Positions 4,329-20,000 of a stretch of 20,000 nt of DNA are shown one piece after another. The notes beneath the pieces were generated by a model. It was not told the origin of the DNA. It saw only the letters and a list, made by a program, of their open reading frames with translations, and ran no database searches. How positions within the stretch are numbered: the stretch's first letter is position 1; every line of letters starts with the position of its first letter. Location: NCBI GenBank assembly GCA_001724265.1, contig MEDY01000252.1, positions 54,226 to 74,225 on the forward strand, written 5' to 3'. Origin of the DNA: Rhizaria sp. SCN 62-66 (Eukaryota). The translations under genes and the position numbers were made by a program.

Positions 4329-4850
4329 ATGTCCGAGTCGAACGTTCTCGCGCAGCCCAAGATCTGCGACACGATCCTGGACCACATCGGCCACACTCCC
4401 CTGGTCCGCATCAACAACATCACCAAGGACGAGGGTATCGAGTGCGAGGTCCTCGCCAAGTGCGAGTTCTTCAACGCCGGTGGCTCCATCAAGGACCGCA
4501 TCGGTAAGCGCATGGTGCTCGACGCCCAGGCCTCTGGTCGCATCAAGAAGGGCGACATCCTCATCGAGCCCACCTCCGGCAACACCGGTACGTCAACTCT
4601 AACATTGACTTAATATTTCGTTTTATAGTGCAATCATTTGCTTATATCCATATACCTTATGTTTTCTTGTATCATATACTTTGTTTTTATCCCGAAATAT
4701 ACTCACATGCCTTCTCTATTCAACTTGTCCGCACTTATCCTCTCGTGCCCGCTTCAGGCATCGGCATGGCCCTGACCGCCGCCGTCGAGGGCTACAAGAT
4801 GATCATCACCCTTCCCGAGAAGATGAGCAAGGAGAAGGTCGACGTGCTCA

Positions 4851-4884
<34 letters not shown>

Positions 4885-6172
4885 CGAGGCGGCCTGGGAC
4901 GCCCCCGAGTCGCACATCGGCGTCGCCAAGACGCTCAACGCCTCGCTGCCCAACTCGCACATCCTCGACCAGTACGCCAACCAGTCCAACCCGCTGGCGC
5001 ACTACGACGGCACGGCCGAGGAGCTGCTCGCGCAGTGCGACGGCAAGATCGACTACCTGATCGCCACGGCCGGCACTGGCGGCACCATCTCGGGCATTGC
5101 CAAGAAGCTCAAGGAGAAGATCCCCTCCATCCAGGTACGTCTAAGTCGACATGTCTCACGCATATAGCTTGCTAATGGAATTATACGTATATACTAAGGT
5201 GTACCGCTTTATCTTATAACTTTCTTTTTCCGTTCTATTGCTATTTACGTTTATATCATCTCACAACATATCGTTTTCTATCGCTTTGTATCTTATTTTC
5301 TCGCCTGTAACTCTGCGATTGTACGCGACTGTATTGTGCCCCTCCTCCAGATCATCGGCGTCGACCCCGTGGGCTCGATCCTGGCGCTGCCCGAGTCGCT
5401 TAACGTGTCTGACATCTCGACGTACCACGTCGAGGGCATCGGCTATGACTTCATCCCCGACGTGCTCAAGCGTGAGTACATCGACAAGTGGGTCAAGACC
5501 CGTGACGCCGAGTCCTTCACCATGGCCCGCCGCCTCATCCGCCAGGAGGGCCTCCTCTGCGGCGGCTCCTCCGGCGCCTGCATGGCGGCCGCTGTGCGCG
5601 CCATCAAGGACCTCAAGATCGGCAAGGACAAGCGCGTCGTCGTCATCTTCGCCGACTCTGTCCGCAACTACATGGGCAAGTTCCTCTCTGACGAGTGGAT
5701 GGTCGAGAACGGCTTCATGGCGCCCCCCAAGCTCAACGCACCCTGGGCTGACCGCACCGTGGGCTCGCTGGCTCTTCACGCGCCTCTCACTGTTGCGCCC
5801 ACCATCTCGGCCGCGGCCTGCATCGAGATCATGAAGAAGAACGGCTTCGACCAGATGCCCGTCGTCTCGGCCGAGGGCACGCTCCTGGGCGTGGTGACCA
5901 TCGGCAACCTCGCCTCCCGCCTCGCCAATGCGCGCATCACGCCCGACTCGCCGATCGAGGCCGCGATGTTCAAGCAGTTCAAGCGCGTGACCGCGGCCAC
6001 GACTCTCGGCGAGCTGTCGGTTATCTTCGACCGCGACCACTACGCCATCGCCACCGTCAAGTCATCGCACGTCAACGCCGAGGGCGTGACGGAGGAGAAG
6101 GAGATGTGCTCCGGCGTCGTCACCCGCATCGACCTCGTCAACTTCATCACCGAGTTCAACAAGACCGCGTAA
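4329..6172 (+). CDS. CBS: Cystathionine beta-synthase (PLP catalytic domain plus C-terminal CBS-domain pair), 3 exons, ~485 aa
   Basis: Exons 4329-4587, 4758-5134 and 5351-6172; introns 4588-4757 and 5135-5350 (GTACGT...CAG). Motifs [26 protein letters not shown] (PLP lysine), [69 protein letters not shown] and a Bateman module (GFDQMPVV ... VVTRIDL). TAA stop. Confidence 0.97.
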
Positions 6173-7574
6173 GCACGCGTACCCAACCATGCGTACCTTG
6201 AGTGAGAGAGAAAGGGTAGTTCTGCCTGACTTCTCTTCTCGCCTGCTAACGTCTTGCTGTAGCTTTTCTTCGTAGTCCTACCAGTGATGATATTTGTTTG
6301 ATCGATTCCTTTCTTTTTCTGTTTTTATTTTTTTGTCTCCCACTGCAAACGCTAAACAAGACACACTTGGCACTAACACGTGTAAGTTTGTTGTTGCTTT
6401 TCAGCGTCTGTGGTGGCCGGCAACGGGCGACTGTGACATGTTCAGTTCAGCGCCGTGACTGGTCTCACTGCTACCTATCAATACCGCGAAGCGGCAAAAC
6501 CAAACACCCCCCAACAACGTACGGCGACAACAAAGCTACCACCAGACAAGCCACAGCAGCAGCAGCAGCGCGAATTCATGTGTTGCTATGCTAGTGCTGT
6601 CGCTTTTTTAAATGTTGTTGCCTGTATTTTTTATCTAGGGTTTTGCTGCTTTGCGTGATATTTCTGACGCATACTCGAGGCGACCGTGTTCAAAGTGACG
6701 CGTAACGAAACAACGACTTCAATCTCTTTTGTTGTTGTTGATCTATTTGTTGCGCGTTGCTTGGCTTGTTTGTAAAGGTGGTTTCACCGGAGCGGATATT
6801 TTAACAAAACACGCGTACTTTATAACACTATAAAAGTGTACATCAGTACAAGCAGGAGTGAATTTTACGAAATTCCCACACTGTGTGTTTTTATTGGCGT
6901 TCCAAGTCATATTGGAGCGCTAACTCTTCTTTCGTGGCCGCGGCTTGCACAGGCGCACTGTCGTAAGCTACTAAACATGTCAGCGCGACTGTGATTACTC
7001 TCCAGTGTTGTTCTACACTGTAAGGCCTTTATCAGTTGTGTTGATGTAGTAGGACTTACACACATACGCAGAACGAACAAACGAAATGGCAGCCAACAGG
7101 AATCTGTATCTGTTGCTCAGGTTGACGTTTGTTTCACTAGGCGTGTGTGTGTCTTTGGGTAGGGGCGCGACGTATGTGAGATCTCACGCGTGCTCGCAGT
7201 TATAAAAGGACCCGTGACCGACTCGTTTGTTTTTGTTTTTCCGAGTTCTAAGGTGTCATGTGTTTTTTGTGCAGCTTTTATAACGCAATTTCAATCAGTG
7301 ATGAAAGTATCTGTTGTTGTTCCAATCAGCAGCAGAGAACAATGAGTGTATGTATTAATGTCACGACTGCTCGTTAATAGTATTCCGTATTCCGTACACA
7401 CACAATATGCTACATATCTTTTCTCTTCTATAAGTATGTTTATATCTCTCAAGAATACACTCCATCACGCTTCATCAAGTCTACTAATCACACAGCAACA
7501 ACTGACGGCGGCATCCCTTGAGCTTATGCTTGACAGAAGAAAATTGACACTTGAGTTATCACTAAATATCATTG
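6173..7574 (+). ncRNA. Candidate large structured RNA (CBS 3'UTR element or independent ncRNA); family unknown
   Basis: Many nested helices read by eye, e.g. 6340-6353/6403-6416, 6485-6501/6639-6655, 6695-6706/6749-6760, 6806-6815/6882-6891, 6894-6905/6912-6923, 7058-7069/7141-7152, 7199-7208/7275-7284 and 7047-7057/7477-7486. Non-Watson-Crick positions are mostly G-U on the + strand. No credible ORF. Confidence 0.55.
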
Positions 7575-7662
7575 TTTGTATTCACTTTCAACAGAAAGAC
7601 ACAAAACAAACTCACAACTAACATATTACTCGCAGTCTAACTGCGTGTCGCTTGCTTAAGCT

Positions 7663-8112
7663 TTACTGAGGGAAGGAGAAGGACTCCGGGAGGCCGAGGA
7701 AGGCCTTGACCTTGCCGTGGTCCTCGTATGTCTCCCCCTCGACCAGGCGCTCCTCGCTGACCTGGCTCTGGGCGACGTCCCACTTGTAGAGCGTAGGCAC
7801 GGCCGTGAGCTTGATCAGCGGGTCCCGCTTGAACGGGTGGCCGCCGGGCTGGCGGTAAGTCGCGCGCGCGAGCGGGCACAGCACCATCGTGTCGCCCTCG
7901 AGCGCGCCTGACGGCTGAAACAGCGCCGAGAGCATGTTCTCGGCCGCCACGCAGTCGCCGCACCAGGGCTTGCCGGCCTCATGAGCGGTCGTGATCATCA
8001 GGTACACCTTGGCCTTGTCGTTGCTCTTGGCGGCGGTGGCGACGGCGGAGACCATCTTGGCCTGGAAGTCGGAGGCGTCGGCGGCGACGTCGACGAGGGT
8101 AACGATGGGCAT
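7663..8112 (-). CDS. TXNDC17: Thioredoxin domain-containing protein 17 / TRP14-like (DUF953 family), 149 aa, intronless
   Basis: ATG 8112 to TAA 7663. GKPWCGDCVAAE active site and the family-typical R..Y..PGGHPFKRDPLIKLTAVPTLYKW ... RLVEGE. Confidence 0.85.
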   Translation of the reverse strand: MPIVTLVDVAADASDFQAKMVSAVATAAKSNDKAKVYLMITTAHEAGKPWCGDCVAAENMLSALFQPSGALEGDTMVLCPLARATYRQPGGHPFKRDPLIKLTAVPTLYKWDVAQSQVSEERLVEGETYEDHGKVKAFLGLPESFSFPQ

Positions 8113-8935
8113 GCTGGGAGTGGCGGCGAAGAGCAGAGAGCGCGACAGGGGGGCACAGCGAGACGACGGCAAGCGGGAGGAACAGGAGATTCGGGACAAA
8201 GAACGAAACATCGGGAGACTAAAGGGGATGAGATATGCCTGACGTGTGAGTACTTCCAGAAGATATCGTAAATTTTTTAAAGAGAAAACTGCATGAAAGT
8301 CTTGCATAACGCACAATTGTCGCCATTATCGGAGAGCAAATTAAGATATGGCGTGTTTTGATATCTTGATTGACGGTCGCCTGGTGCTGTCTTTTTTGCG
8401 AACCTGTCGTTTGACCACAAAAAAAGACGAGAACAACGTCTCGCTGGTCTTGGTCTTTGGAGTGTCCATTGTACGACATACATCCACAAATAACGCTTGC
8501 AGTGGTAGTATCACTCTATTCTTAGATGGATCTTTAAATGATTGTTATTGCTGCGCTTGCTGGCTCAGGCATTGGGCTGGGGCATCTCCTGCAGATCTGG
8601 GTCACAACAACAACGCTCGTCCTCCCAATGCCCACACTACTTCCCCTCTACAAACCTCAGCCTCGCTGCTGTGTTTAACATTTGGTCTTTAGCCTTTCGT
8701 GTTGGCGCAGTTTATCTTTTTAGTGGTGCTGCTTTTTGCCATGCTAGGCTCAGCCATGGCTCCCTAGAAGGCTTGGCAGTGATATCATCAACACATCTCA
8801 CCTCAAATCAAACCAGTCCTCACTCCATCGCCTCTCTTGTCCTTATTTCCTTGCGCTTTCCTCTGTTTTTGTTTGACTCTCTCTGCCCACCGCTATCTGC
8901 GCCTTGCTCTTGCTACATCAGGAGACATCGTCGCA
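8113..8935. promoter_or_regulatory. Divergent intergenic region, putative bidirectional promoter for TXNDC17-like and RPT1
   Basis: Head-to-head starts at 8112 (-) and 8936 (+), with pyrimidine-rich leaders on each gene's sense strand. Confidence 0.4.
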
Positions 8936-10722
8936 ATGTCGGCCCCGAACAAGGACGACAAGGCGATCCCGATCCCGATTCCTCGCGACGACGCGACTGA
9001 GAAGAAGGACGACACCACGCCCTCCTCCGTCACGGACCCCAAGCGGCCCGGCGACGACCTCGCTTCGGCGTCGACGCGCCCGCTGGATGAGGACGACATC
9101 GCCGTGCTCAAGACCTACGCCGCGGGGCCCTACACCAACTCGATCAAGAAGCTCGAGGACGAGGTCAAGTCCCTCGTCGGCAAGGTCAACACGCTCAAGG
9201 GCGTCAAGGAGAGCGACACGGGTCTCTCCCCGCCCTCGCAGTGGGACCTGGTCGCGGACAAGCAGATGATGATGATGGAGCAGACGCTCCAGGTCGCCCG
9301 CTGCACCAAAATCATCGCCCCTAACACCCCCCAGGTACGTCTCCGGCCTCGCCAACATAACCGTGCTAGTTTTACCATACCCTACATTTGAAGCCAAAGA
9401 TCGCCTCGCGTGGGATTGATTTTGTGCCATGATGTTAATTGTTGCTGTATTTACCTGTTCTTCTTATTATATCTCTCTGTAATAATATCCTCCTCACACA
9501 CATAACACTATCGCCTCCGTATTTGTGTTCCCTGCAGGCCAAGTACATGGTCAACGTGAAGCAGATCGCCAAGTACGTCGTCGGCCTCGCCGAGCGCGTG
9601 TCCCCGACCGACATCGAGGAGGGCATGCGCGTCGGCGTCGAGCGCCAGAACAAGCTCTCGATCCATCTCCCGCTCCCGCCCAAGATCGACCCCTCGGTCA
9701 CCATGATGACCGTCGAGGAGAAGCCCGACGTGACGTACAACGACGTCGGCGGCTGCAAGGAGCAGATCCAGAAGATCCGCGAGGTTGTTGAGATGCCCCT
9801 CCTCAACCCCGAGCGCTTCGTCACTCTCGTACGTCTACAGCCACAAACGCAAACAAAGCTTTTCACTTGCTGTATCTCGACATCAACCGCTTTGTAACAA
9901 ACATATTTCGCCTCGATTCTTTGCAACAACGCCAAGGCGACTAAATTTCTTTTCATGGTATACGATAATAACATTTCAATAACTCATCATCTTGACGCAC
10001 ATCAACTCCTTTCTGCTCTCAACTCTCAACAGGGCATCGACCCCCCCAAGGGCGTGCTGCTGTACGGCCCCCCCGGCACGGGCAAGACTCTCCTCGCCCG
10101 CGCGGTTGCGAACCAGACGGACGCGTGCTTCATCCGCGTCATCGGCTCCGAGCTCGTGCAGAAGTACGTCGGCGAGGGCGCGCGCATGGTCCGCGAGCTC
10201 TTCCAGATGGCGCGCACAAAGAAGGCCTGCATCATCTTCTTCGACGAAGTCGACGCCATCGGCGGCGCGCGCTTTGACGACGGCCAGGGCTCGGACAACG
10301 AGGTGCAGCGCACGATGCTGCAGATTGTGACTGAGCTGGACGGCTTCGACGCGCGCGGCAACATCAAAGTACTGATGGCGACCAACCGGCCCGATACTCT
10401 GGACCCCGCGCTGCTGCGCCCCGGGCGCCTGGACCGCAAGATCGAGTTCGAGCTGCCGAAGCTGGACGGCGCGACGAAGATCCTCGAGATCCACTCCAAG
10501 ACGATGTCGTGCGAGAAGGGCATCCGGTGGGAGCTCATCGCGCGTCTGTGCCCCAACACCACGGGCGCCGAGCTCCGCTCCGTGTGCACCGAGGCGGGCA
10601 TGTTCGCCATCCGCGCGCGCCGCAAGGCCGTCACGGAGAAGGACATGCTCGACGCCGTGCAAAAGGTCATCAAGGGCTACGCCAAGTTCTCCGCCACGCC
10701 TAAGTACCTCGTCTACAACTAA
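8936..10722 (+). CDS. RPT1: 26S proteasome regulatory AAA-ATPase subunit 7 (RPT1/PSMC2), 3 exons, ~459 aa
   Basis: Exons 8936-9334, 9538-9828 and 10033-10722; introns 9335-9537 and 9829-10032 (GTACGT...CAG). Motifs [66 protein letters not shown], Walker A GPPGTGKT, Walker B IIFFDEVD and C-terminal [14 protein letters not shown] stop. Confidence 0.97.
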
Positions 10723-11308
10723 AGTATGCAACAGCACAGCAGTTACAATAATAGCATTCATGGCAGGCTTGCTTACGACAAGTGTGAAACTTGTTCGGCA
10801 CAGAAGTGTTGCGGTATAACAAAACAAGACAGAAAATAAGAAATTATATGCGTTTTTATTAGCTTTTAGATATGTGAAATATGAATACAAAAGTTCAAAA
10901 ATTCAAGCTGACTCCTTAAGCAACGCTCCGCACCACCATTGAACAGTGAGTATTTGTAATGAACAGATATTAACAACACCCGCAAGAAGTCGAGTTTATT
11001 GAGTTACATAATAATTGACTTTTTAGATGTGGGGCACTTGACTAAGCGCCAGTAAAACTATGATTAGTTAATTGTACGCGCAAATAGTACTCAATTTTCT
11101 GTCTTCAGAGCCATACTCGGCACTATGCATTCAATTTGCCAATTCATTTTTGTAAAATCAAAAAACACGTGTTTCACAATTATTTCAAGTTTATTGAATT
11201 CATATTATGAAGAATGCTCTGATTGCATATCATTGAGGTTTGAATCAGCTTCGAGTCCACCACAAACGTGTTTTTGTTTGTTGCTGCCAGTTGGGCTGCT
11301 ACTGGCAG

Positions 11309-11443
11309 GTATGTGAGGTCAAAGACCGAGTTTGACTTGGAGAAGCGGATATCTCTGCGTATTCATCGTCAACGTAAATGATTCTATGGCAACTGTATTT
11401 TTTATAACTCGTATTATTTGATCTTGTTATTGCCACTCCTTAG
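11309..11443 (+). other. Putative 5'UTR intron of the adrenodoxin reductase gene (135 nt)
   Basis: CAG|GTATGT donor matching the local consensus, AT-rich body, and CCACTCCTTAG acceptor 10 nt before the ATG at 11454. Confidence 0.5.
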
Positions 11444-11453
11444 TCACTGTTTT

Positions 11454-13553
11454 ATGCTGAGTTCACGACTGGCCAAAGCAGCCACTCGCTCCACCAGCTT
11501 CCACAGCCTTCTGAGCAGCTCATGCACGCTCCTACGCGCACCTTCCGCGTGCTTCGCTACCAATGCTGCTGCAACCAGTACAGATTCTCCGGCCCCATCT
11601 ATCGCGATTGTCGGCTCCGGTGCGTCTGGTCTTTTCACTGCAAAGTACCTCCTGCAAGAGCTTCCGGGCGCCAAGATAACGATCCTGGACCGGCTGCCCA
11701 CGCCGCACGGGCTGATCCGCTACGGCGTTGCCGCGGACCACCCCGAAGCCAAGGTCGTCACCGCGGACCTGGACAAGGCCGTGCTCTCGCACCCTAACGT
11801 TACCTTTGTGCCCAACGTCGCAGTCACCGCGCCTCCTGTCACGACCTCTTTCCCGTTAGCGTCGAATGAGACGGTCACTGCGGTGCCGCTGGCCGACCTG
11901 CGGGCGCAGCACGACGCCGTGGTGCTGGCTGTGGGCGCCGAGTCCTCCAAGCGGCTTAACCTGCCGGGCGAGGACACGCCGGGCGTGTGGGACGCGCGCG
12001 AGTTCGTCGGCTGGTACAACGGCCACCCCGACTACGCACACTTAGATTTCCACTTAGACGAGACCACGGACGTCGTCATCCTCGGCAACGGCAACGTCGC
12101 GCTCGACGTTGCGCGCATTCTACTTAAGCCCGCCGCCGCGCTGGCTGATACCACGCTCGCGCCCCACGCTTATGCGGCGCTCGAGACCTCGGCGGTGCAG
12201 CGCATCACCGTCGCGGCCAGGTACGTGTACATCTAACAAAACGGATTAATTGACGGCATAGGTTACTTTTGTCGTAATATTTCACCTATAAATGTAAAAA
12301 AAAAATATGTTGTTACTCTTTTATTATGCTTTAATCATTTCAATCATTTATCTTCCTGTTTAAATCTCACTAACAATTTTCTTACTTTGTCTCTGCTTTT
12401 CTTCCTGTTTTTACTCTTCGCCACCTCACACAGGCGCGGCCCCGTGCAGGCGGCGTACACGATTGCCGAGTTCCGCGAGATTACGGCCCTGGCGCTGCGC
12501 CAAGTCCGCTCCGGCCGCTCCGGCCTCCGCTTCGCCTCGGCGCTGCCGCTCGACCCCGCGTCCGCCGCCGAGGCCGAGGGCAACCGCGCGCTGAAGCGCA
12601 AGACGGAGCTGCTGGTGCAGCTGCAGGGCAAGATCGAGAGCGTGGAGCGCGGCGAAGCCGTGGCGACGGGCGGCGGCGAGACCCCCGTGGCCAACAGCCG
12701 CGAGCTCGAGTTCCTGTACTGGGCCAAGCCGGTCGCAATCGAGAGCGCCAACTCCGCCTCGTACTCAAACCTCACGGTGAACCACACCCTGACGGGTCGC
12801 CCCGCGCCCGCGGGTGCTGGCGCGGGCGTGGACGAAGACCATGAGGTGCGGTGCGTGGTGTTCGAATCCACCGACCCCCTGAACAACATGACTAACGTCA
12901 ACGTGAACAGCATCAGCGGCTCCTCAGCGGGCGTTAGCGGCGCTAACAACGCCTTTAGAGTGCCCGCGATGGCGCCGCCGATGCTGCCGACGCTGCCGCC
13001 GACGACGACGCGTGAGAGCGCCCACGCGCAGTTTCACTACACAGGCGATGACTTATCTGCGCAGCCCGCCGAGGGAGAGGCCAAGGGCGAGGCCAGGGGC
13101 GAGGGCGCGAGCGCGCCAAGACACAGCGCGTACGCCGGCAGTGCGCACGCTGGTCATGGGGGCAGCAGCGGCGGCGGCGGCCACTCTGGCGGCGGCCACT
13201 CCGGCGGCAACTACAACCGGCGCGGGCGTGTTATGGTCATCAAGAGCGTGGGCTACCGGTCCGTGCCCGTGCCGGGCTGCGCGTTTGACCCCCAGCGCGG
13301 CGTCATCCCCACCGCAGCTGGCGGACGCGTCCTCGCCAGCAGCGGCGACGGCGGCGGCAACAAGACGCAGACCGCGAGTGCGGGTGCGAGCGAGGCTGCT
13401 GCGGTGAAGACGGAGGAGGGCCTGTATGCGACTGGCTGGGCACGCCGGGGCCCCACTGGCATCATTGGGAGCAACATCGGTGACGCCAAGGAGGTCGCGC
13501 TGGCCGTTGCCGCGGACTGGCGCAAGAAGATGCAGCTGCAGCAGGGCAAGTGA
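11454..13553 (+). CDS. FDXR: Mitochondrial NADPH:adrenodoxin (ferredoxin) oxidoreductase, ARH1/FDXR family, 2 exons, ~628 aa
   Basis: Exons 11454-12220 and 12434-13553; intron 12221-12433 (GTACGT...CAG). The Ser/Arg/Leu-rich, acid-free N-terminus resembles a mitochondrial presequence. Motifs IAIVGSGASG, PTPHGLIRYGVAADHPEAK, AREFVGWYNGHPD, ILGNGNVALDVARIL, RRGPVQAAYT, KSVGY and GLYATGWARRGPTGIIGSN..DA. TGA stop. Confidence 0.93.
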
Positions 13554-14113
13554 GTCGCACTTTACAATGTGTCGCCTTGATGGAGACAACCGTGTTTATA
13601 TTGATGGGCCTCAAGGCCACGCTATTAATAATATCGGAAATGTTTAAAAATACATTTGTTGTATTGTATTACCAAGTCTATTTTTCTGTGTGCTATTGTT
13701 AGAGCGATACGCTTCATGTTTCGCGAGTGATTCCTCGAATCGTTGATGAGAAGGAGAAAACTGCTTCAGACCAGCCGTTTCTTGTAGAGGGAAACGGTCT
13801 GGTCGAGACCGAGTTTTGTGATGAGCAAAACGATGCCTAGAGTCCATGAAAGAGAACTGTCGACTCTTCAAATTATTTTCGATGTTGTTAATAGTTATGC
13901 TTTGCTAACGTCACTGCAAATGATTATGTCTCCCTTACTCTAGCCCTCCTTTCGTTTGGCAGAGCAAACACTAGCCACCACTACCCCAAACTCGCACTCC
14001 TGCCCGTTGCTCGTGCTCCCCTGCGACAACCCGGCAGCCTTTCACCCCACTACAACAGCAACCTAAGAGCTGTTCTTCCTACTACTAGCGACTTTGCCAC
14101 AACAGCTGCTATT

Positions 14114-15861
14114 ATGTACCGCCAAGCGTACGTTTTGCCTCGCTCCGACGCCACACAACTCTGACGCTCACTCGCTGACCTCCTCTCTTCCCAGCACCTC
14201 TATTTCCAACTGTATCGCCCCCTAACATATTTTTTGTGCACTTTACTGCCTTTTTATTGTTTGCTACCACAGTGCCCCGACTGCGGCGCAGACCGCTGCA
14301 CCGACCGTGCTGACAGTGAGCGAAGTCACCGCCCTGCGCACGCTGGCGCACCCGGCCTCGGCGACCTTCACGGCCACGGCCGAACTCGCGCGCAAGAACG
14401 AGCTCAAGGCGCGCTCGACCGCGCGCTACACGCACTGGCCTAACACGCTTGAGGCGCAGCGGCAGAAGAAGGAGCTGGAGCGCCGCCGCCGGCTCGACGC
14501 CATCGAGAGCGCGCAGCAGGAGGTGGACGAGCGTGAGCGTGCCTTCCACGACCAGCAGCGCCGCGCCACCATCGCGCGCGCCAACAACCTGCTGTACCAG
14601 GAGAACGACCGCGTCAAGACCTTCCGCTCCTCGCTGCTGGTCAGCAACGCGCTGCACGAGCGCACCGCGCAGGGCGTGTTCAAGGATGAGTACAAGGCGC
14701 GCGAGGCCCACGCCCGCGCGCTGCACGAGCAGCAGATCGCGGTATCGATCGCCAAGCAGGACGCGCGCGACGCCCGCGACGCCGCGGCCCGCGATGCGCT
14801 TGCGCGCGACGCCGCAGCCATGCGTCTGGAGCAGCTGAAGGAGAAGGAGCAGCGCCACATCGCGGAGAGGCGCGAGGAGATGCGCGAGGGCGCGCTGGTC
14901 CACGCCTCGGCCGCGGCCGCGCTGGCGCAAGGCAAGGCGGCCGAGGCGGCGCGGCGCGCCGAGCAGCGGCAGCGCGCTGAGGAGCTCGTGCTGGCGAACC
15001 AGGACGCGCTGCGCGTCAAGGCGGAGCAGGCGCGGCTGATCGAGGCCGAGAACGCCAAGATCGCGCACTACGCGGCCGAGAAGGAGCGCGTGGCGGCGCT
15101 GCGGGCCGCGCGCGAGCAGGAGAAGCGCGAAGCCAAGCAGGCGCGCGTGGACGGGATTATTTCGCGGCAGCAGGCGCACCTCAGTGTCGTCACGGCCAAG
15201 GAGCGTGAGCGCCTCGAGAAGGAGCTCGCTGCCATGAACTTCAAGGAGGCCGAGAAGGAGCGCATCGCCGCCGACCGGTATGTGACTTTGAAATTATAGT
15301 ACAAAAACAAAAATATCTTCAGGACTAAAAATTGTCTACTCGTGTAAACTCTCAATACTCACACCTACGCATTGTACCTCTCTTTTTCTTCTTGTCTTAT
15401 TGTATCGTTGTATCGCCTTACTTGAATTACTTCACTCCAGGCGCGCGGAGCTGCTGGCGGGCTTGCACCGCGGGCGCGAGCTGCAGCTGATTGACCGCGC
15501 GACCGCAGAGCTGCGGCGCAAGCAGGAGGACGCGGCGATGGGCGCCGAGCACGCGCGCATGTGCGCCGCGCTCAAGGCCGAGGAGGAGGCCGAGCTCCAG
15601 CGCGAGCGCGACGCCGCTGTCACGCTCAAGTCGGCGCTGCACGAGCAGGCGGAGGCGAAGCGGCAGGCGGTGAAGCAGCAGCAGCTGGAGACGCTGCGGT
15701 ACGCGGACCGGATGCAGCGGGAGCGCGACGACGACGACAAGACGTTCGGCGAATACGCGCAGTACCACGTCGACAAGTGGGAGCGCGACGGCAAGGACAC
15801 GATGCCGCTCAAGGTCACGCTCGCCAAGATGGAGCGCAAGGAGAAGCGCATCAACGCGTGA
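14114..15861 (+). CDS. CFAP210: Cilia- and flagella-associated protein 210 (CCDC173)-like coiled-coil protein, 3 exons, ~479 aa
   Basis: Exons 14114-14127 (14 nt coding), 14273-15277 and 15441-15861; introns GTACGT...CAG and GTATGT...CAG, with consistent phases. Signature LKARSTARYTHWPNTLEAQRQKK ... IARANNLLYQENDRVKTFRSSLLVSNALHER, then a long E/R/A/K coiled coil. TGA stop. Confidence 0.82.
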
Positions 15862-15952
15862 AGGGGAGCGCTATAAACTCGATGTATGAGCAGTGCAATG
15901 TGTGTCCGTAAGTCTGTGTATGCTTTGTTTAGTGTTATATGTGATATAATCT

Positions 15953-15982
15953 CTGTAAGCTTACGGACTGTAAGCTTACGGA
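15953..15982. repeat. Perfect 15-bp tandem duplication (CTGTAAGCTTACGGA x2) with an internal palindrome GTAAGCTTAC
   Basis: Read directly at 15953-15967 and 15968-15982. Confidence 0.85.
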
Positions 15983-16274
15983 TAATTATGCAGGGCCAGG
16001 TTAACGTGCGAACAGTTAGGACGAATGTACGTCGGAAAGCATATTCTCACGCGATCAAGATCGATAAATACAAGAATACAAACTACGCGAAATATCAATA
16101 CGCTGCAAATGGACACGCAACATAAGGAAGGAAGCTGTGCGAAACTAAAATCATTGCTGACGTTCAAGAAAAACGTGCCTTTGTATTGCAAAATACGTTA
16201 TGGACATCATAAATCAATCAAACAGCGTTCAAATTTTACAGGAAATTGAATTCATGCACTGCGTTCTGCGACAT

Positions 16275-19200
16275 TTAGTCCAAATCCCGATCGTAATCAT
16301 CGTCGCCGGACATCGAGCCAAGCCCACCGAAGCCGCCGTTGCCATCGCCAGCAGTGGCCAACAGTAGCGCCAGTGCCTCGTTCGCGCCCGCGGTGGCCTT
16401 GGCGTTGGCCTCCGCCTGCGCCTGCGCCGCCGCCGCCTCGGCCGACAGTGCGACCGTCACAGCCTTGGCGCCCCTGCCCTTGCCCGCCCTCGCACCACCC
16501 GTTGCCGAGCCAGCTGCGTGGTCAGCGCCAGTGGCGCTCACAGGCTTGGGTTTCGGGCCACGCTTCCGTGGAGCGGCTGCGCCTGCGCCTGCGCCTGCGC
16601 CTGTGCCGTCTAAGGGGGTACTTACAGCTGCGCCCTCGTCGGCGGGAGCCTTCTTCTTGCGCGGCGCCTTAGGCTTCGCGGCAGCAGCAGCAGCAGCACC
16701 GGCAGCGATGCCAGTGCTCGTGTTGCTGCTATCGGGCAGATCGGCGATCGCGCCCATGGTGGCGATGGCGTGGCTGTGCATGCTCGAGTACGCAGTCGAG
16801 CTCACGTTGCCGTACGCGCTCGGATATGCCGCGGCGCCCACATCGGTGTAGCCAGGGGCGGTCATGTGTGGATAATGCGGGTACACAGGGGCGCCCATGC
16901 CCAGGTTCGGGAGGTCCGAGTACGCGTGAGTGCGAGTGCCGTTGTTCGGGTCCGCGTGAGCGCTCAAGGTCGGGAAGGAAGCTATGCCAAGGTTCGGGAA
17001 CGACGTTGCGCCCAGGTTCGCATTGCTGCTGTTGTTGAGTTCGTCGTCGCCGTCGTCGTATTCGTCGTTATGACTTTGAGAGTAACCGTGAGCGTAGCCG
17101 TGACCATGAATGGGGCCCTGACCAAAGGCACCAGCAGCAGCAGCAGCAGCAGCAGCGGCGGCGGCGGCAGCATGGTTGAAAGCACTGCTACCGGACACTC
17201 CCTCATTTTGAGCGCTACTGCTACTGCTGGCCGTATCAGCAGTCTTACTACCGATCGCAGTCGGGATCGAGTTAGCGCCAGCGCTGGCGCCGGGACCGGG
17301 GGCGGGGCCGGTGCTTTCGTCGTCGCTTAACTTAAGCCGCTTGCTCACGGTCGCGCGGCCCCAGTAGCGCAGCATCTCCGTCACCAGCGACACCATCGCC
17401 TGCCGCGTGCGCGCGCTCATGCCCTTGCCGCTGGGCCCGCCAGCCGCCGCCGCCGCCGCCGCGACGGCCGCCAGCGTCGGCGCCAGGACGGGCGGGATCT
17501 GCTTCTTGTTTCGCGGCCGGCTGGCCTCGGCGAACGCGCGCTGCGCCTTGGTGACGCGCGCCGCCGCGGCCGCCAGGAGCGCGGACGCCGCGGCCGGGGT
17601 CGCGGCGGCGCCCGCGGCCGCGGTGGCCTCGGCGGCGGCGGCCTCGGCGGCGGTGACCGCGGCGGCGGCGGCCAGCACCGCGCCGCTGTCCGGCTCCAGC
17701 TTGGTCTCCTCCAGGGCCGGAATCAGCGGCTCCAGTGCCTGCTTCAGCGCTGTGAGGGCCTGGGCCACGGCTAAGGGGTACTCAGGGAAGAACTCGCTCT
17801 GCGGGACGTGAGCACTTGCGTCCGCACCGGGTAAGGGGGTGCTTAGATGGGGGTCCGCGCTCGATGCAGCTGTTGTCGCGTGACCGCTTGCGTGGGTGTT
17901 GCCGTTGGCGCTGTTGAGGTCACCGTTATTGTATGCGCTATAGCTATAGCTCGAGCTGACGCTTGCCGCTGCAGCTGCGGCTGCGGCTTGTTGTTGTTGT
18001 TGCTGCTGTTGCAACTCAGCATTAATGCCATCGTAGTTGTTGCGGGAACTCGGGTCCGTGTCGGCATCAGTCATGCTTACGCCAGCGCCAGCGCCAGCGC
18101 CAGAGGCATAATAGCCGCTGGCATCAGAGCCTGCATGTGCAGCTGCAGCTGCGTCAGCTCTGTTGCTTGCATCAACAGAAGCAGCAACGCCAGATGGTGC
18201 CGTTGCCGCAGTCCCGAGTTGGGTTGTCACGGCTGCTGCTGCGGCAGCTGCGGCCAACGCGGCCTCTGTCGCTGCCTTGGCTTCCGCGATCTCCTTCTTT
18301 GTGCGCCGCTTCCGGACGCCGGACGCGGGCGCAGCTCTGCCGCCAGCAGCAGCGTCAGAACCGGCGGCTGCATTAGCGGCGTCGGCTGCGGCGGGGGCGG
18401 CGACAGTTGCTTTTTGCTTGCGCTGCCTCGGTGCCTTTGCGGTCGCGGCAGCATTCGAGCCCGCGCCTGCGCCTGCGCCAGCCGCGCTGCCCGCAGCGGC
18501 AGCGGCGGCGGCGGCGGTGGTCGCGGCGGCGGCTGATGCGCGCTTTTGGCCGCCGCGAGCGCCCTTGGCGGCGGCGGCGTCGCCGGTGTCGGCCTCCTTG
18601 CCCTGACCCTGACCCTGCGCCTGCGTCTGGGCCTGCGAGGCAGCGGCGGCGGCGGAGCCAGCCTTGGCCGACGACGTTGCCGCCGCCGCCGTCGCCCCCG
18701 CCGCCGCCGCCTTGGCCACCGGCGGCGGCGGCGGCGGCAGCGGAGGCATCGCGAGCATCGGCACCGGCCCCGGCGCAAGCACATAAAAGCCTGCCACGGC
18801 GGGCACGGGATGCTGGCTGAGCGGGGGGAAGTGCGCGAAGTGACTGTGAGCGGCGGGGTGACCGTGGGCAGGCCGGGGACGCTTGACTGCAGGCTTGCCG
18901 GGGCCGCTGCTGGCTGCATTGTTGTTTTCGTCGTCGTCGCTATTGTTGTTTTCAGAGTCGGAGGCATCGCTTTTGTTGGCGTTGTCGTCTTGCTCTTTAT
19001 CGTCATCATCGTCGTCGTCGTCATCGTCATTGTCGTCATTGTCGTCCCCGTCGCCGTCTTCGCCGTCGTCATCGTCGTCGTCCTCGTCTTCTTCCTCTTC
19101 ATCAGTCACGACAAATCCTTGCAAGTTGCCGTCGTCCTCGTCGTCTTCCTCGCTCTCGTCGTCGTCCTCCTCCTCATTGTACGGCACGCCCGCGGCCGCC

Positions 19201-20000
19201 GCGGCCGCCGCGCGCTGCTGCCGCCGCTGCTGCTTGGCGCGCTCGCGCCGGCGCTGCTGCTGCAGCTTCTTCTTCTCGCGCTGCTCCTGGCGGCTTAACT
19301 TCTTCACAGCACGCTTGCCCTTCGTCGGAGCAGCAGCAGCACTGGCACTGGCGCTAGAGCTGGAGCTAGAGCTGGAGCTGGAGCTGGAGCCGCTCGAGTC
19401 TCCCTTTATCATGCCGTCGGCGTTCGCAGACGAAGACAGGCCCCCGCCCACCCTGCTTGACTTCTTGCTCTGCATGTAAGTGGGCCCCACGTAGGTGCCC
19501 TCTTTGGTGCGCAGGTAGAAGTCGCTGGGCAGCTTGTAGCGCACATAGCAGTTATTGTGCATGTGGTCCAGGCTAACCGTGACCGTGCCGTGAGGCGAAG
19601 CGGCCACCGCGTCGGACAGACTGAAATAGTACCGCAAAGCCTCATCGTCGTCACCGTACTCGTCGTCGTAGTCGCCGTCGCCGTCACCGTCAGCCTCAAC
19701 GTCGTCGTCCTCGTCCTCGTCCTCGTCATCGCCAGCGCTGTCACTGTCGACCGCGCCTCCGCCTGCTCCTGTGGCTGTGTTGAGAGGGCGGATGCCCAGC
19801 CGGGCCGCGGCGGCTGGGTTGGCGGCCAGATACAACTCCGCCTGCGCCTCGCGCTGCGTCTTGCGCGCCCTGCGCTCCGCCGCGCGCGCCGCCGTCAGAG
19901 CCGCCGCCGCGACCGACGCGGCCGCCGAGAGCAGCGGGTCCTGGGGCGCGGCAGCCGCGGCGGCCGCGGCGGCCGCGGCCTCGGCGGCGGCAGCGGCGGT
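16275..20000 (-). CDS. Large low-complexity protein (>1240 aa, 5' end outside window), probably nuclear; tentatively ubinuclein/HPC2-like histone chaperone
   Basis: Frame open from position 20000 to TAA at 16277-16275. Poly-Ala, poly-Asp/Glu, poly-Gln and poly-Ser tracts and basic NLS-like clusters (RKRRTKK, KAPRKKK, PRKRGPKPK). Helical segment KKQIPPVLAPTLAAVA...VSLVTEMLRYWGRATVSKRLKL. Coding status is well supported; the family call is weak. Confidence 0.75.
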   Translation of the reverse strand, partial: TAAAAAEAAAAAAAAAAAPQDPLLSAAASVAAAALTAARAAERRARKTQREAQAELYLAANPAAAARLGIRPLNTATGAGGGAVDSDSAGDDEDEDEDDDVEADGDGDGDYDDEYGDDDEALRYYFSLSDAVAASPHGTVTVSLDHMHNNCYVRYKLPSDFYLRTKEGTYVGPTYMQSKKSSRVGGGLSSSANADGMIKGDSSGSSSSSSSSSSSSASASAAAAPTKGKRAVKKLSRQEQREKKKLQQQRRRERAKQQRRQQRAAAAAAAGVPYNEEEDDDESEEDDEDDGNLQGFVVTDEEEEDEDDDDDDGEDGDGDDNDDNDDDDDDDDDDKEQDDNANKSDASDSENNNSDDDENNNAASSGPGKPAVKRPRPAHGHPAAHSHFAHFPPLSQHPVPAVAGFYVLAPGPVPMLAMPPLPPPPPPVAKAAAAGATAAAATSSAKAGSAAAAASQAQTQAQGQGQGKEADTGDAAAAKGARGGQKRASAAAATTAAAAAAAAGSAAGAGAGAGSNAAATAKAPRQRKQKATVAAPAAADAANAAAGSDAAAGGRAAPASGVRKRRTKKEIAEAKAATEAALAAAAAAAAVTTQLGTAATAPSGVAASVDASNRADAAAAAHAGSDASGYYASGAGAGAGVSMTDADTDPSSRNNYDGINAELQQQQQQQQAAAAAAAASVSSSYSYSAYNNGDLNSANGNTHASGHATTAASSADPHLSTPLPGADASAHVPQSEFFPEYPLAVAQALTALKQALEPLIPALEETKLEPDSGAVLAAAAAVTAAEAAAAEATAAAGAAATPAAASALLAAAAARVTKAQRAFAEASRPRNKKQIPPVLAPTLAAVAAAAAAAGGPSGKGMSARTRQAMVSLVTEMLRYWGRATVSKRLKLSDDESTGPAPGPGASAGANSIPTAIGSKTADTASSSSSAQNEGVSGSSAFNHAAAAAAAAAAAAAGAFGQGPIHGHGYAHGYSQSHNDEYDDGDDELNNSSNANLGATSFPNLGIASFPTLSAHADPNNGTRTHAYSDLPNLGMGAPVYPHYPHMTAPGYTDVGAAAYPSAYGNVSSTAYSSMHSHAIATMGAIADLPDSSNTSTGIAAGAAAAAAAKPKAPRKKKAPADEGAAVSTPLDGTGAGAGAGAAAPRKRGPKPKPVSATGADHAAGSATGGARAGKGRGAKAVTVALSAEAAAAQAQAEANAKATAGANEALALLLATAGDGNGGFGGLGSMSGDDDYDRDLD

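Follow-up and report, generated by a model that had tools for sequence, protein, structure and literature searches.

A strand-specific hairpin array in the spacer between convergent CBS and TXNDC17-like genes

What is encoded between two convergent genes that are separated by an unusually long spacer? A cystathionine beta-synthase (CBS) gene and a TXNDC17-like thioredoxin-fold gene face each other across 1,490 nt, while the other low-GC spacers of the window (the whole 20-kb stretch of DNA analysed) measure ~0.5-0.7 kb by estimated boundaries. The last exon of CBS (5336..6172, + strand) ends with a stop codon at 6170-6172. Pfam PALP and CBS domains were detected in its product, which shares 72% identity with a relative labelled cystathionine beta-synthase by its source and aligns at its C-terminus with the ends of relatives' proteins. 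The TXNDC17-like gene (7663..8112, - strand) matches Pfam PF06110 (E 4.7e-13) and its translation carries a WCGDC motif; the earliest plausible methionine is at MPIVTL, and the start codon as placed is probable. The spacer has a GC content of 35-58% compared to 65-75% in exons, and a structured block occupies the portion that exceeds the usual ~0.5-0.7 kb (estimated boundaries). Three spacer ORFs of 67-98 aa gave no Pfam match at E<=1, and a search for tRNA and tmRNA genes found none. An intron of the 3'UTR spanning the block was rejected because the start shared by both CBS introns upstream of the last exon (GTACGT, in introns running GTACGT...CAG) is absent from the spacer by reading.

Extent and strand of the excess folding

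Folding beyond chance is confined to ~6451-7284 (about 0.8 kb) and to the + strand, i.e. the CBS-sense strand. The minimum free energy (MFE) of 6451-7200 was -274 kcal/mol on the + strand vs. -217 on the - strand, and the + strand reached z -7.24 against dinucleotide shuffles (0/20 as stable), -6.69 against 25 shuffles in 25-nt blocks, and -6.10 against 30 trinucleotide-preserving shuffles, with none of the 75 shuffles equally stable when the three null models were pooled. The same three nulls gave z -1.17, -1.37, and -1.22 on the - strand, which is barely above chance, and the stems are therefore poor DNA palindromes. When 150-nt windows were slid along both strands of the entire 20 kb, the 13-window run at 6451-7200 on the + strand had the most extreme mean z of all runs (-2.10; remaining 704 runs: mean -0.12, sd 0.51, minimum -1.75), and the strand-specific excess is unique within the window.

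The original prediction had described almost the whole gap, starting immediately downstream of CBS, as densely paired + strand RNA, and had advised shuffle tests on both strands. These place the + strand of 6451-7200 far beyond shuffles (-7.2 to -6.1), and the five local helices that it listed lie exactly where it had put them, all of them in the MFE and centroid folds of the + strand. Its extent, however, had to be narrowed: it holds for ~6451-7284 and fails for the proximal flank at 6173-6450 (z -0.34 on +, 68/200 shuffles as stable) and the distal flank at 7285-7662 (z -0.53 on +, 0.02 on -). The block does lie downstream of CBS but begins ~280-300 nt past the stop codon, after T-rich sequence without structure (tract at ~6300-6340). 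The further claim that other intergenic regions lack comparable density was borne out by four control spacers, namely 10700-11420 (z -0.99 / -0.29), 13550-14110 (-2.47 / -0.69), 8320-8900 (+0.51 / +0.54), and 15790-16274 (-0.83 / -0.40), so that flanks and controls together range from +0.5 to -2.5.

The proximal flank (6173..6450, + strand) probably contains an ordinary CBS 3'UTR together with its end. No AATAAA was found there on the + strand, and the genes of the window were not seen to share any 3'-end motif by which the CBS poly(A) site could have been located. The distal flank (7285..7662, - strand) is presumably the 3'UTR of the TXNDC17-like gene.

Hairpins and G-U asymmetry

The + strand folds into ten hairpins, here H1 to H10, which follow each other closely, with only 1-43 nt between neighbours. 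Five of the ten have z-scores between -4.4 and -7.4, basal stems of 12-17 bp, and a total of 22-60 bp paired. The largest, H2 (6476..6660), is a segmented hairpin of 185 nt and ~58-60 bp; its basal stem comprises 17 bp (6485-6501 / 6639-6655), and pair probabilities are 0.93-0.97. Its MFE was -71.9 on the + strand (z -6.58, 0/200 shuffles) and -67.0 on the - strand (z -3.44), and in its apical part (CAG)5 is paired with a degenerate YUG run. The 70-nt H3 (6693..6762) consists of a 17-bp basal stem with 4 G-U pairs and a 10-bp upper stem, with a pair probability of 0.96 and pronounced strand specificity (MFE -31.0, z -7.36, 0/200 shuffles on +; -12.4, z -0.90 on -). H5 (6894..6923) is a hairpin of only 30 nt, in which 11-12 bp including 2 G-U close a hexaloop (MFE -17.0, z -6.12 on +; -9.2, z -3.33 on -; pair probability 0.96). 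In H7 (6977..7047, ~70 nt), a 16-18-bp basal stem with 5-6 G-U leads through an 8x8 internal loop into a 6-bp apical stem; folded as 6979-7045, it had an MFE of -25.7 and z -4.98 on the + strand compared to -14.8 and -1.79 on the - strand (pair probability 0.90-0.99). H8 (7058..7152, 95 nt) pairs (AC)n against (GU)n in a 12-bp basal stem (pair probability 0.97), above which stand 12 + 6 + 4 bp (MFE -37.9, z -4.43 on +; -31.1, z -3.25 on -).

The remaining hairpins are weaker. H1 (6333-6423; z -2.96 on +, -1.48 on -) sits inside the proximal flank. H4 (6806..6891) is a branched element of 86 nt, in which a 9-bp closing stem encloses two small inner hairpins (z -2.62 on +, -1.63 on -; pair probability 0.85-0.91), and the 28-nt H6 (6942..6969; z -3.32 on +, -0.16 on -) has a pair probability of only 0.55. 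The two distal hairpins are H9 (7167-7197; z -1.65 on +, +0.20 on -) and H10 (7199-7284; z -2.03 on +, -2.05 on -), the latter having a perfect 10-bp inverted repeat with TATAAAAG on both strands as its basal stem. No sequence or loop motif shared among the hairpins was found.

Two further analyses address the level at which pairing is maintained. A model-free count of contiguous helices of at least 12 bp (Watson-Crick plus G-U, span up to 220) gave 10 on the + strand of 6451-7284 and none on the - strand, compared to 7 and 3, respectively, in ~4.3 kb of low-GC sequence outside the spacer. In addition, the spacer was folded with G-U pairs forbidden and mismatches in symmetric loops were counted, with a compositional expectation of 0.54 for the share of G.U as binomial baseline. 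The + fold contained 13 G.U vs. 3 A.C (p = 0.024) and the - fold, re-expressed for the + strand, 15 G.U vs. 2 A.C (p = 0.003), while six control spacers, 3,136 nt in total, contained 2 G.U vs. 3 A.C in their + folds. The count of 10 vs. 0 long helices and the G.U:A.C ratio of 13:3 tell RNA-level pairing apart from DNA palindromes. The G-U bias that had been claimed for the + strand (13:3 and 15:2, against 2:3 in controls) is thus upheld, and the data support that the block behaves as an RNA-level feature rather than as DNA inverted repeats.

This evidence also bears on the view that the block is a non-functional relic of inverted-repeat-rich DNA, either foldback/MITE-like or made of microsatellites in both orientations, with a G.U bias produced by strand-biased mutation, e.g. 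C-to-T and A-to-G changes that arise on the sense strand in association with transcription. Runs of (CAG)n, (GTT)n/(CAA)n, and (AC)n/(GT)n do make up parts of H2, H3, and H8, as such a relic would predict. Yet the excess survives shuffles that preserve trinucleotides and local composition, and the spacer ORFs carry no Pfam match. Transcription-linked mutational skews are modest, and an asymmetry of 13:3 to 15:2 far exceeds them. Foldback and MITE elements are present in many copies and, as near-perfect DNA palindromes, fold equally well on either strand. The block resembles them in its long hairpin-forming DNA, e.g. the 185-nt H2, but differs in the absence of - strand helices of at least 12 bp and of any further copy elsewhere in the window (18.5 kb), (CAG)n aside. 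We regard a relic as unlikely.

Long-range closure and known RNA families

Whether the hairpins form one closed domain is less clear. An end-to-end closure of the whole spacer, proposed between 6286-6296 and 7563-7573, was rejected as chance, the best flank duplex reaching only z -0.23 with 109/300 shuffles as good. A different long-range helix is predicted on the + strand between 6449-6471 and 7172-7194 (21 bp, 3 G-U), which would delimit a domain of 746 nt (6449..7194) if formed. Its mean pair probability was 0.92 in the partition function of 6300-7400, where a second enclosing helix, 6423-6439 / 7358-7374, was predicted with P 0.87. The 21-bp helix occurs in the MFE and centroid folds of 6451-7200 but disappears when the MFE is computed for the whole spacer, and as a flank-to-flank duplex it is not better than shuffles (z -1.59, 27/500 as good); for this reason we retain it only tentatively as a possible closure of the array.

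Such a closing helix would be more in keeping with a globular structured RNA than with beads on a string, and it is an argument for a stand-alone, closed multi-branched RNA of 0.75-0.95 kb that would act in a ribonucleoprotein, e.g. as a telomerase-RNA-like scaffold or a lineage-specific lncRNA, instead of being a processing substrate. The position of the element in mid-spacer, distant from both stop codons, and the C-rich internal loop of H2 with 17 unpaired nt (6502-6518) would fit this reading as well. Against it stand the closing helices, which score no better than shuffled flanks and do not appear in the whole-spacer MFE fold, and the lack of an Rfam family match. Telomerase RNA carries a single-stranded template complementary to ~1.5 telomere repeats; CCCTAA, which would be expected in a template for TTAGGG-type repeats, and TTAGGG itself are absent from both strands of the spacer, although the telomere repeat of the host may differ. 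Altogether, a structural RNA of this kind appears very improbable.

Known families offered no assignment. Rfam 15 gave no matches at gathering thresholds across the whole window, and at E<=10 the sole match in 6100-7700 was mir-598 (E 3.6, 16.9 bits vs. a gathering threshold of 69), a chance-level match that sits within the CBS coding sequence. The covariance-model search thus agrees with the statement in the original prediction that the family is not recognised, and no riboswitch family matched at E<=10, so that its suggestion of a metabolite-responsive element is not supported. No known family could be named for the array among riboswitches, snRNAs, snoRNAs, miRNAs, ribozymes, RNase P/MRP, SRP, and telomerase RNAs. 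Box C/D snoRNAs have an RUGAUGA box, a CUGA box ~60-150 nt downstream, and a short terminal stem. RTGATGA occurs on the + strand at 6284 and 7298, but the next CTGA is 380 and 204 nt away, respectively, and the flanking sequences do not pair by reading, so that the box C/D layout is missing. Box H/ACA snoRNAs follow a hairpin-hinge-hairpin-tail arrangement with the pseudouridylation pocket ~14-16 nt from the H or ACA box, and by inspection the 12-17-bp basal stems would leave any such pocket at too great a distance from the single-stranded 3' part.

Relatives and neighbouring sequence bear on the reading preferred in the original prediction, i.e. a cis-acting structured 3'UTR of CBS reaching ~1.1 kb past the stop codon, the hairpins of which would serve as binding sites for proteins (less probably for a metabolite) and thereby control mRNA stability, translation, or localisation. 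The block is located on the CBS strand and directly downstream of the gene, promoter-like or Pol III features were not found between the two, and the constraint acts at the RNA level on the + strand, all of which is compatible with a 3'UTR. On the other hand, the first ~280 nt after the stop codon are unstructured, and a 3'UTR of at least 1.1 kb would be long compared to total spacers of ~0.5-0.7 kb elsewhere in the window; no riboswitch or other cis-element family was matched even at E<=10. A metagenome scan with a CBS alignment returned 80 loci, none of which matches the spacer by blastn or encodes a TXNDC17-like protein. The contig of the only close locus (72% identity) stops 219 nt past the CBS stop and shows no similarity there, and in eight distant relatives the 600 nt downstream of CBS held nothing comparable (sense z +2.0 to -2.6, 12 shuffles each). 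Assemblies of near relatives do exist, given a proteasome subunit with 99% identity, retrieved with the proteasome ATPase, and a CBS with 72% identity on a 36-kb contig. The 3'UTR of transferrin-receptor mRNA carries five iron-responsive elements (IREs), which are protein-binding stem-loops, and in IRE-type arrays one loop and bulge motif recurs. The similarity to these arrays lies in a run of hairpins that follows the coding region of a gene for a metabolic enzyme or transporter, but the hairpins next to CBS have no common motif as in protein-binding arrays and are mostly much longer. A structured CBS 3'UTR is possible but doubtful, and none of the analyses supports membership of the block in the CBS mRNA or a role in CBS regulation. 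A full-text search listed no published description of a large structured element downstream of CBS, which is weak evidence that none has appeared.

Possible processing of the hairpin array

The reading that we favour, tentatively, is a cluster of Pol II-transcribed hairpins in or just after the CBS transcript that would be recognised by shape by RNase III-type enzymes. The absence of a common sequence or loop motif argues for recognition of shape instead of repeated sites for one protein, and the many T runs inside the block argue against a single Pol III unit. The CBS-sense strand of ~6450-7285, and only this strand, encodes eight to ten hairpins of 28-185 nt, each stable on its own, and their pairing appears to have been maintained at the RNA level, with G.U tolerated and A.C not. 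In the favoured scenario, RNA polymerase II would transcribe them in a transcript that continues from CBS or in a unit just downstream, and the hairpins might serve as double-stranded substrates for an enzyme of the Dicer, Drosha, or Rnt1 class. The block could then be a pri-miRNA-like or hairpin-RNA cluster from which cleavage yields small RNAs, and cleavage might also end CBS-sense read-through before it enters the TXNDC17-like gene in antisense direction.

A study of unicellular ichthyosporeans reports miRNAs, including one polycistronic pair, and quotes a criterion of at least 16 nt of arm complementarity (bioRxiv 10.1101/076190). Hairpins of miRNA or hairpin-RNA precursors have an extended imperfect duplex with ~16-21 nt or more of arm complementarity. 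H1, H2, H3, H7, and H8 have arm complementarity of at least 16 nt, with 22-60 paired positions and 12-17 contiguous bp in their basal stems. Similar to polycistronic miRNA or hairpin-RNA precursors such as clustered miRNA genes, the array combines several unrelated hairpins on one strand within ~0.8 kb, and like miRNA precursors its stems contain G-U wobbles and its hairpins are far more stable than shuffled sequence. Unlike miRNA precursors, the array lacks homology to any Rfam miRNA family and is heterogeneous in hairpin size. With only 28-31 nt, three hairpins (H5, H6, and H9) fall short of the size needed for Dicer-type cleavage, H4 and H10 are branched or weak, and some stems are microsatellite-like, e.g. 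(CAG)5, (GTT)n, and (AC)n, all of which counts against a processing cluster.

In yeast, cleavage sites of the RNase III Rnt1 are described as fail-safe Pol II terminators downstream of protein-coding genes, and in the unusually long NPL3-GIP17 spacer an RNase III cleavage hairpin terminates read-through; according to this source, an Rnt1 site consists of a single stem-loop with an AGNN tetraloop at its tip (PMC2779338). The array shares with these terminators, as portrayed there, stable hairpins 3' of a coding gene, an unusually long spacer, and a neighbour at risk of read-through. It differs in comprising eight to ten hairpins, in the absence of AGNN tetraloops among the apical loops of the folds (4-16 nt), which likewise counts against a processing cluster, and in that both enzyme and cleavage are hypothetical here.

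With low probability, the array is an undescribed RNA gene, i.e. a hairpin-array ncRNA of ~0.75-0.95 kb on which selection acts at the RNA level, in a eukaryotic lineage that has been poorly sampled. Such a gene might represent the lineage's first pri-miRNA-like polycistron or a new scaffold RNA with a closed multi-branch fold, and its location between convergent sulfur/redox genes might link CBS read-through to silencing or termination. The hairpin array is a good single-locus candidate and not an established new class. If it is transcribed and conserved, it would represent an unannotated RNA gene or processing module, and might point to an RNase III/small-RNA pathway or to post-transcriptional control of CBS, which commits homocysteine to transsulfuration. 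Moreover, a strong strand-specific signal was obtained here from a single sequence without an alignment, and the same approach is applicable genome-wide for sister elements.

Setting and extent of the structured block

The window belongs to an intron-containing eukaryote with GC-rich exons (about 65-75%) and AT-richer introns and spacers (about 31-50% GC). An ORF at 5336-6172 on the + strand, with Pfam PALP and CBS domains, is the last exon of the CBS gene, and its best relative (72% identity) is called cystathionine beta-synthase by its source. On the - strand, a TXNDC17-like thioredoxin domain (PF06110) is encoded by an ORF at 7663-8316, whose coding region is probably 7663-8112. The two genes are convergent, and both 3' ends therefore fall within the 1,490-nt gap between them (6173-7662). 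Other low-GC spacers of the window measure roughly 0.5-0.7 kb, judged from ORF and GC boundaries that give approximate gene models. The structured block (about 6450-7285) occupies the excess of this spacer over the usual length, starting about 280-300 nt 3' of the CBS stop codon, after unstructured sequence that includes a T-rich tract (~6300-6340), and ending about 380 nt short of the TXNDC17-like stop. Two CBS introns were seen (4589-4757, about 169 nt; 5136-5350, about 215 nt; about 31-40% GC), both with GTACGT at the start and CAG at the end, a splice-site consensus that may be useful for annotating this genome.

The original prediction held that almost the whole gap forms a densely paired + strand RNA of about 1.4 kb. 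Dense pairing on the + strand is real, but its extent is about 0.8 kb. All five local helices quoted there were found in place and are present in both the minimum-energy and centroid folds of the + strand. The + strand of 6173-7172 folds at -349.8 kcal/mol vs -293.7 +/- 7.6 in dinucleotide shuffles (z -7.37, 0/20), the - strand at -293.1 vs -277.8 kcal/mol (z -2.03). For 6451-7200, the + strand reaches -274.0 kcal/mol, with z -7.24 against dinucleotide shuffles (0/20), -6.69 against 25 shuffles in 25-nt blocks that preserve local composition (best shuffle -231.4) and -6.10 against 30 trinucleotide-preserving shuffles that keep microsatellite content (best shuffle -239.8), while the - strand (-217.0 kcal/mol) gives -1.17, -1.37 and -1.22, respectively. 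When both strands of the window were scanned end to end (150-nt windows, 50-nt step, 30 shuffles each), no run was as extreme as 6451-7200 on the + strand (13 windows, mean z -2.10); the remaining 704 averaged -0.12 (sd 0.51, minimum -1.75), and the same run on the - strand -0.17. No folding signal was found in the proximal flank 6173-6450 on the + strand (z -0.34, 68/200 shuffles equally stable) or in the distal flank 7285-7662 (z -0.53 on +, 0.02 on -). Four control spacers spanned z +0.54 to -2.47: 8320-8900 (+0.51 on +, +0.54 on -), 10700-11420 (-0.99, -0.29), 13550-14110 (-2.47, -0.69) and 15790-16274 (-0.83, -0.40).

Some other structured spots occur elsewhere in the window. A near-perfect palindromic hairpin at 13768-13805 (13 Watson-Crick bp and one bulge) occupies the centre of the other apparent convergent spacer, between ORFs 12387-13553 (+) and 14112-15179 (-), and is stable on both strands (150-nt windows 13701, z -2.5 / -3.9, and 13751, z -1.8 / -2.9); a role at 3' ends or in termination, in both directions, is possible. 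A long - strand ORF (16275-19835) is followed, beyond its stop, by a tandem pair of short units at 15952-15990; each unit holds the palindrome GTAAGCTTAC, and the pair forms a 13-14-bp hairpin with local z of -3.6 and -2.1 on the - strand, in a spacer (15790-16274) that as a whole is not structured. Local z is strongly negative in two regions of GC-rich coding ORFs, 18601-18800 (windows 18601/18651, z -6.1 / -5.1 on -, -2.3 / -2.6 on +) and 12851-13050 (windows 12851/12901, z -5.1 / -4.6 on -, -2.9 / -3.4 on +), where the coding sequence is probably repetitive or palindromic.

Strand specificity and probable selection at the RNA level

The gap was folded with G-U pairs forbidden and mismatches in symmetric internal loops were then classed, a procedure that favours neither strand; the two folds were nearly equal (-340.7 and -346.3 kcal/mol). 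The + fold contained 13 G.U, 3 A.C and 17 other mismatches, and the - fold, re-expressed for the + strand, 15, 2 and 18, vs 2 G.U and 3 A.C in six control spacers (together 3,136 nt) folded on the + strand. With a G.U share of 0.54 expected from base composition, the binomial p is 0.024 for the + fold and 0.003 for the - fold, in agreement with the G-U bias originally noticed on the + strand. Counted without any folding model, contiguous helices of at least 12 bp (Watson-Crick and G-U, span up to 220 nt) numbered 10 on the + strand of 6451-7284, three of them overlapping alternatives on a (GTT)n run ending at 6740, and none on the - strand; every long helix thus relies on G-U pairs, which turn into A.C on the opposite strand. 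Low-GC sequence beyond the gap, about 4.3 kb, held 7 such helices on + and 3 on -.

The long helices of the block are not good DNA palindromes, as the original prediction had argued in favouring RNA over DNA inverted repeats, and the pattern is what purifying selection on a + strand RNA would leave. The only neutral alternative we see is a relic of old inverted repeats shaped by a strand-biased mutation process. Transcription-linked mutational skews are modest, and the relic would need a bias far above them. A neutral relic is accorded a low probability. It is quite likely that + strand RNA structure at this locus is, or recently was, under selection.

Hairpin anatomy

Short linkers of 1-43 nt join the hairpins of the block into a chain, and pair probabilities in the main stems are 0.85-0.99 (partition function of 6300-7400). 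Hairpin z-scores (+ / -) are somewhat inflated since borders were chosen from the + strand fold: H1, 6333-6423, within the proximal flank that has no overall excess (-2.96 / -1.48); H2, 6476-6660, 185 nt, four segments totalling about 60 bp (-6.58 / -3.44); H3, 6693-6762, a 17-bp stem with 4 G-U plus 10 bp (-7.36 / -0.90); H4, 6806-6891, branched (-2.62 / -1.63); H5, 6894-6923 (-6.12 / -3.33); H6, 6942-6969 (-3.32 / -0.16); H7, about 6977-7047 (-4.98 / -1.79); H8, 7058-7152 (-4.43 / -3.25); H9, 7167-7197 (-1.65 / +0.20); and H10, 7199-7284 (-2.03 / -2.05). The hairpins have no sequence in common (direct repeats reach 12-14 nt only) and no common loop motif. Runs of (CAG)5, (GTT)n/(CAA)n and (AC)n/(GT)n make up parts of H2, H3 and H8, but do not account for the signal, because the trinucleotide-preserving shuffle still gives an excess. 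The minimal-folding-energy index (energy per nucleotide / GC%) is 0.83-1.21 for H2, H3, H5, H7 and H8; about 0.85 or more is quoted for plant miRNA precursors.

The predicted fold of H2 leaves a 17-nt unpaired C-rich internal loop (6502-6518) next to its 17-bp basal stem; in some RNPs, single-stranded segments bounded by helices act as templates or binding sites. The TATA-box-like octamer TATAAAAG has three copies in the gap (6831-6838 and 7201-7208 on +, 7275-7282 on -), two of which are the arms of a perfect 10-bp inverted repeat at the H10 base.

Two long-range helices are predicted around the array in the partition function of 6300-7400, 6449-6471 / 7172-7194 (21 bp, P 0.92) and 6423-6439 / 7358-7374 (15 bp, P 0.87). 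Closure of the array is only tentative, because a duplex between its flanks does not outperform shuffles (z -1.59, 27/500) and both helices are missing from the whole-gap minimum-energy fold. The proposed end-to-end closure of the gap, 6286-6296 / 7563-7573, does appear in that fold, inside an AU-rich 20-bp helix, but was rejected, the best flank-flank duplex being no better than shuffles (z -0.23, 109/300 equally good). A closed, scaffold-type ncRNA is accorded little probability.

Known families and a candidate mechanism

No family had been recognised originally, and Rfam 15 gave no match in the window at gathering thresholds; at E<=10, the only match in 6100-7700 was a chance-level mir-598 within the CBS coding sequence. 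No tRNAs were found, three gap ORFs (67-98 aa) had no Pfam match at E<=1, the gap contains neither CCCTAA nor TTAGGG, nor AATAAA on its + strand, and no part of it has a second copy in the other 18.5 kb of the window except (CAG)n. A box C/D snoRNA was rejected (two RTGATGA motifs in the gap, but no CTGA at fitting distance). By inspection, the 12-17-bp basal stems seem a poor match to H/ACA snoRNA geometry. An intron was thought unlikely; GTACGT, with which the two CBS introns start, is not read anywhere in the gap.

A cis-regulatory, long CBS 3'UTR is one possible reading, though an unlikely one. The link between CBS and the block is strand and adjacency, nothing more. The gap sequence is unmatched in 80 CBS loci from metagenomes, and the 600 nt downstream of CBS in eight distant loci with enough flank gave sense-strand z of +2.0 to -2.6 in a crude test (12 block shuffles each). 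The only contig of the 72%-identical relative ends 219 nt after the stop codon. A full-text literature search found no such element described downstream of CBS, which speaks only weakly for the absence of a published description.

RNase III-type cleavage has two known outcomes, small-RNA production and termination of read-through. Our preferred mechanism, held tentatively, is that Pol II would make the hairpin cluster and an RNase III-type enzyme would recognise the hairpins by shape and cleave them, which may give small RNAs and/or end read-through. Transcription, the polymerase, continuity with CBS, cleavage and small RNAs are all steps that we infer beyond the structure. This mechanism is preferred over a site array for one protein or an aptamer because the hairpins are many, unrelated, long, very stable and on one strand, because they lack a common motif, and because they follow a gene within a convergent spacer of excess length. 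Passages of bioRxiv 10.1101/076190 describe ichthyosporean miRNAs, one polycistronic pair among them, and passages of PMC2779338 describe Rnt1 fail-safe termination, including in an unusually long yeast spacer. The Rnt1 signature given in those passages is an AGNN tetraloop, and no apical loop of the block is one.

Public databases contain 99%-identical relatives (P0133, P0134) of a proteasome ATPase (Rpt1-type) fragment at 9955-10722, so that sequence from organisms very close to this one exists and could provide the orthologous spacer. For one sequence taken alone, the statistical signal is unusually clean, and the block is a candidate functional RNA element. Both hairpin clusters and structured 3' regions have precedents; the block is without a family and, if real, would be a new hairpin cluster or structured 3' region from an under-sampled lineage.
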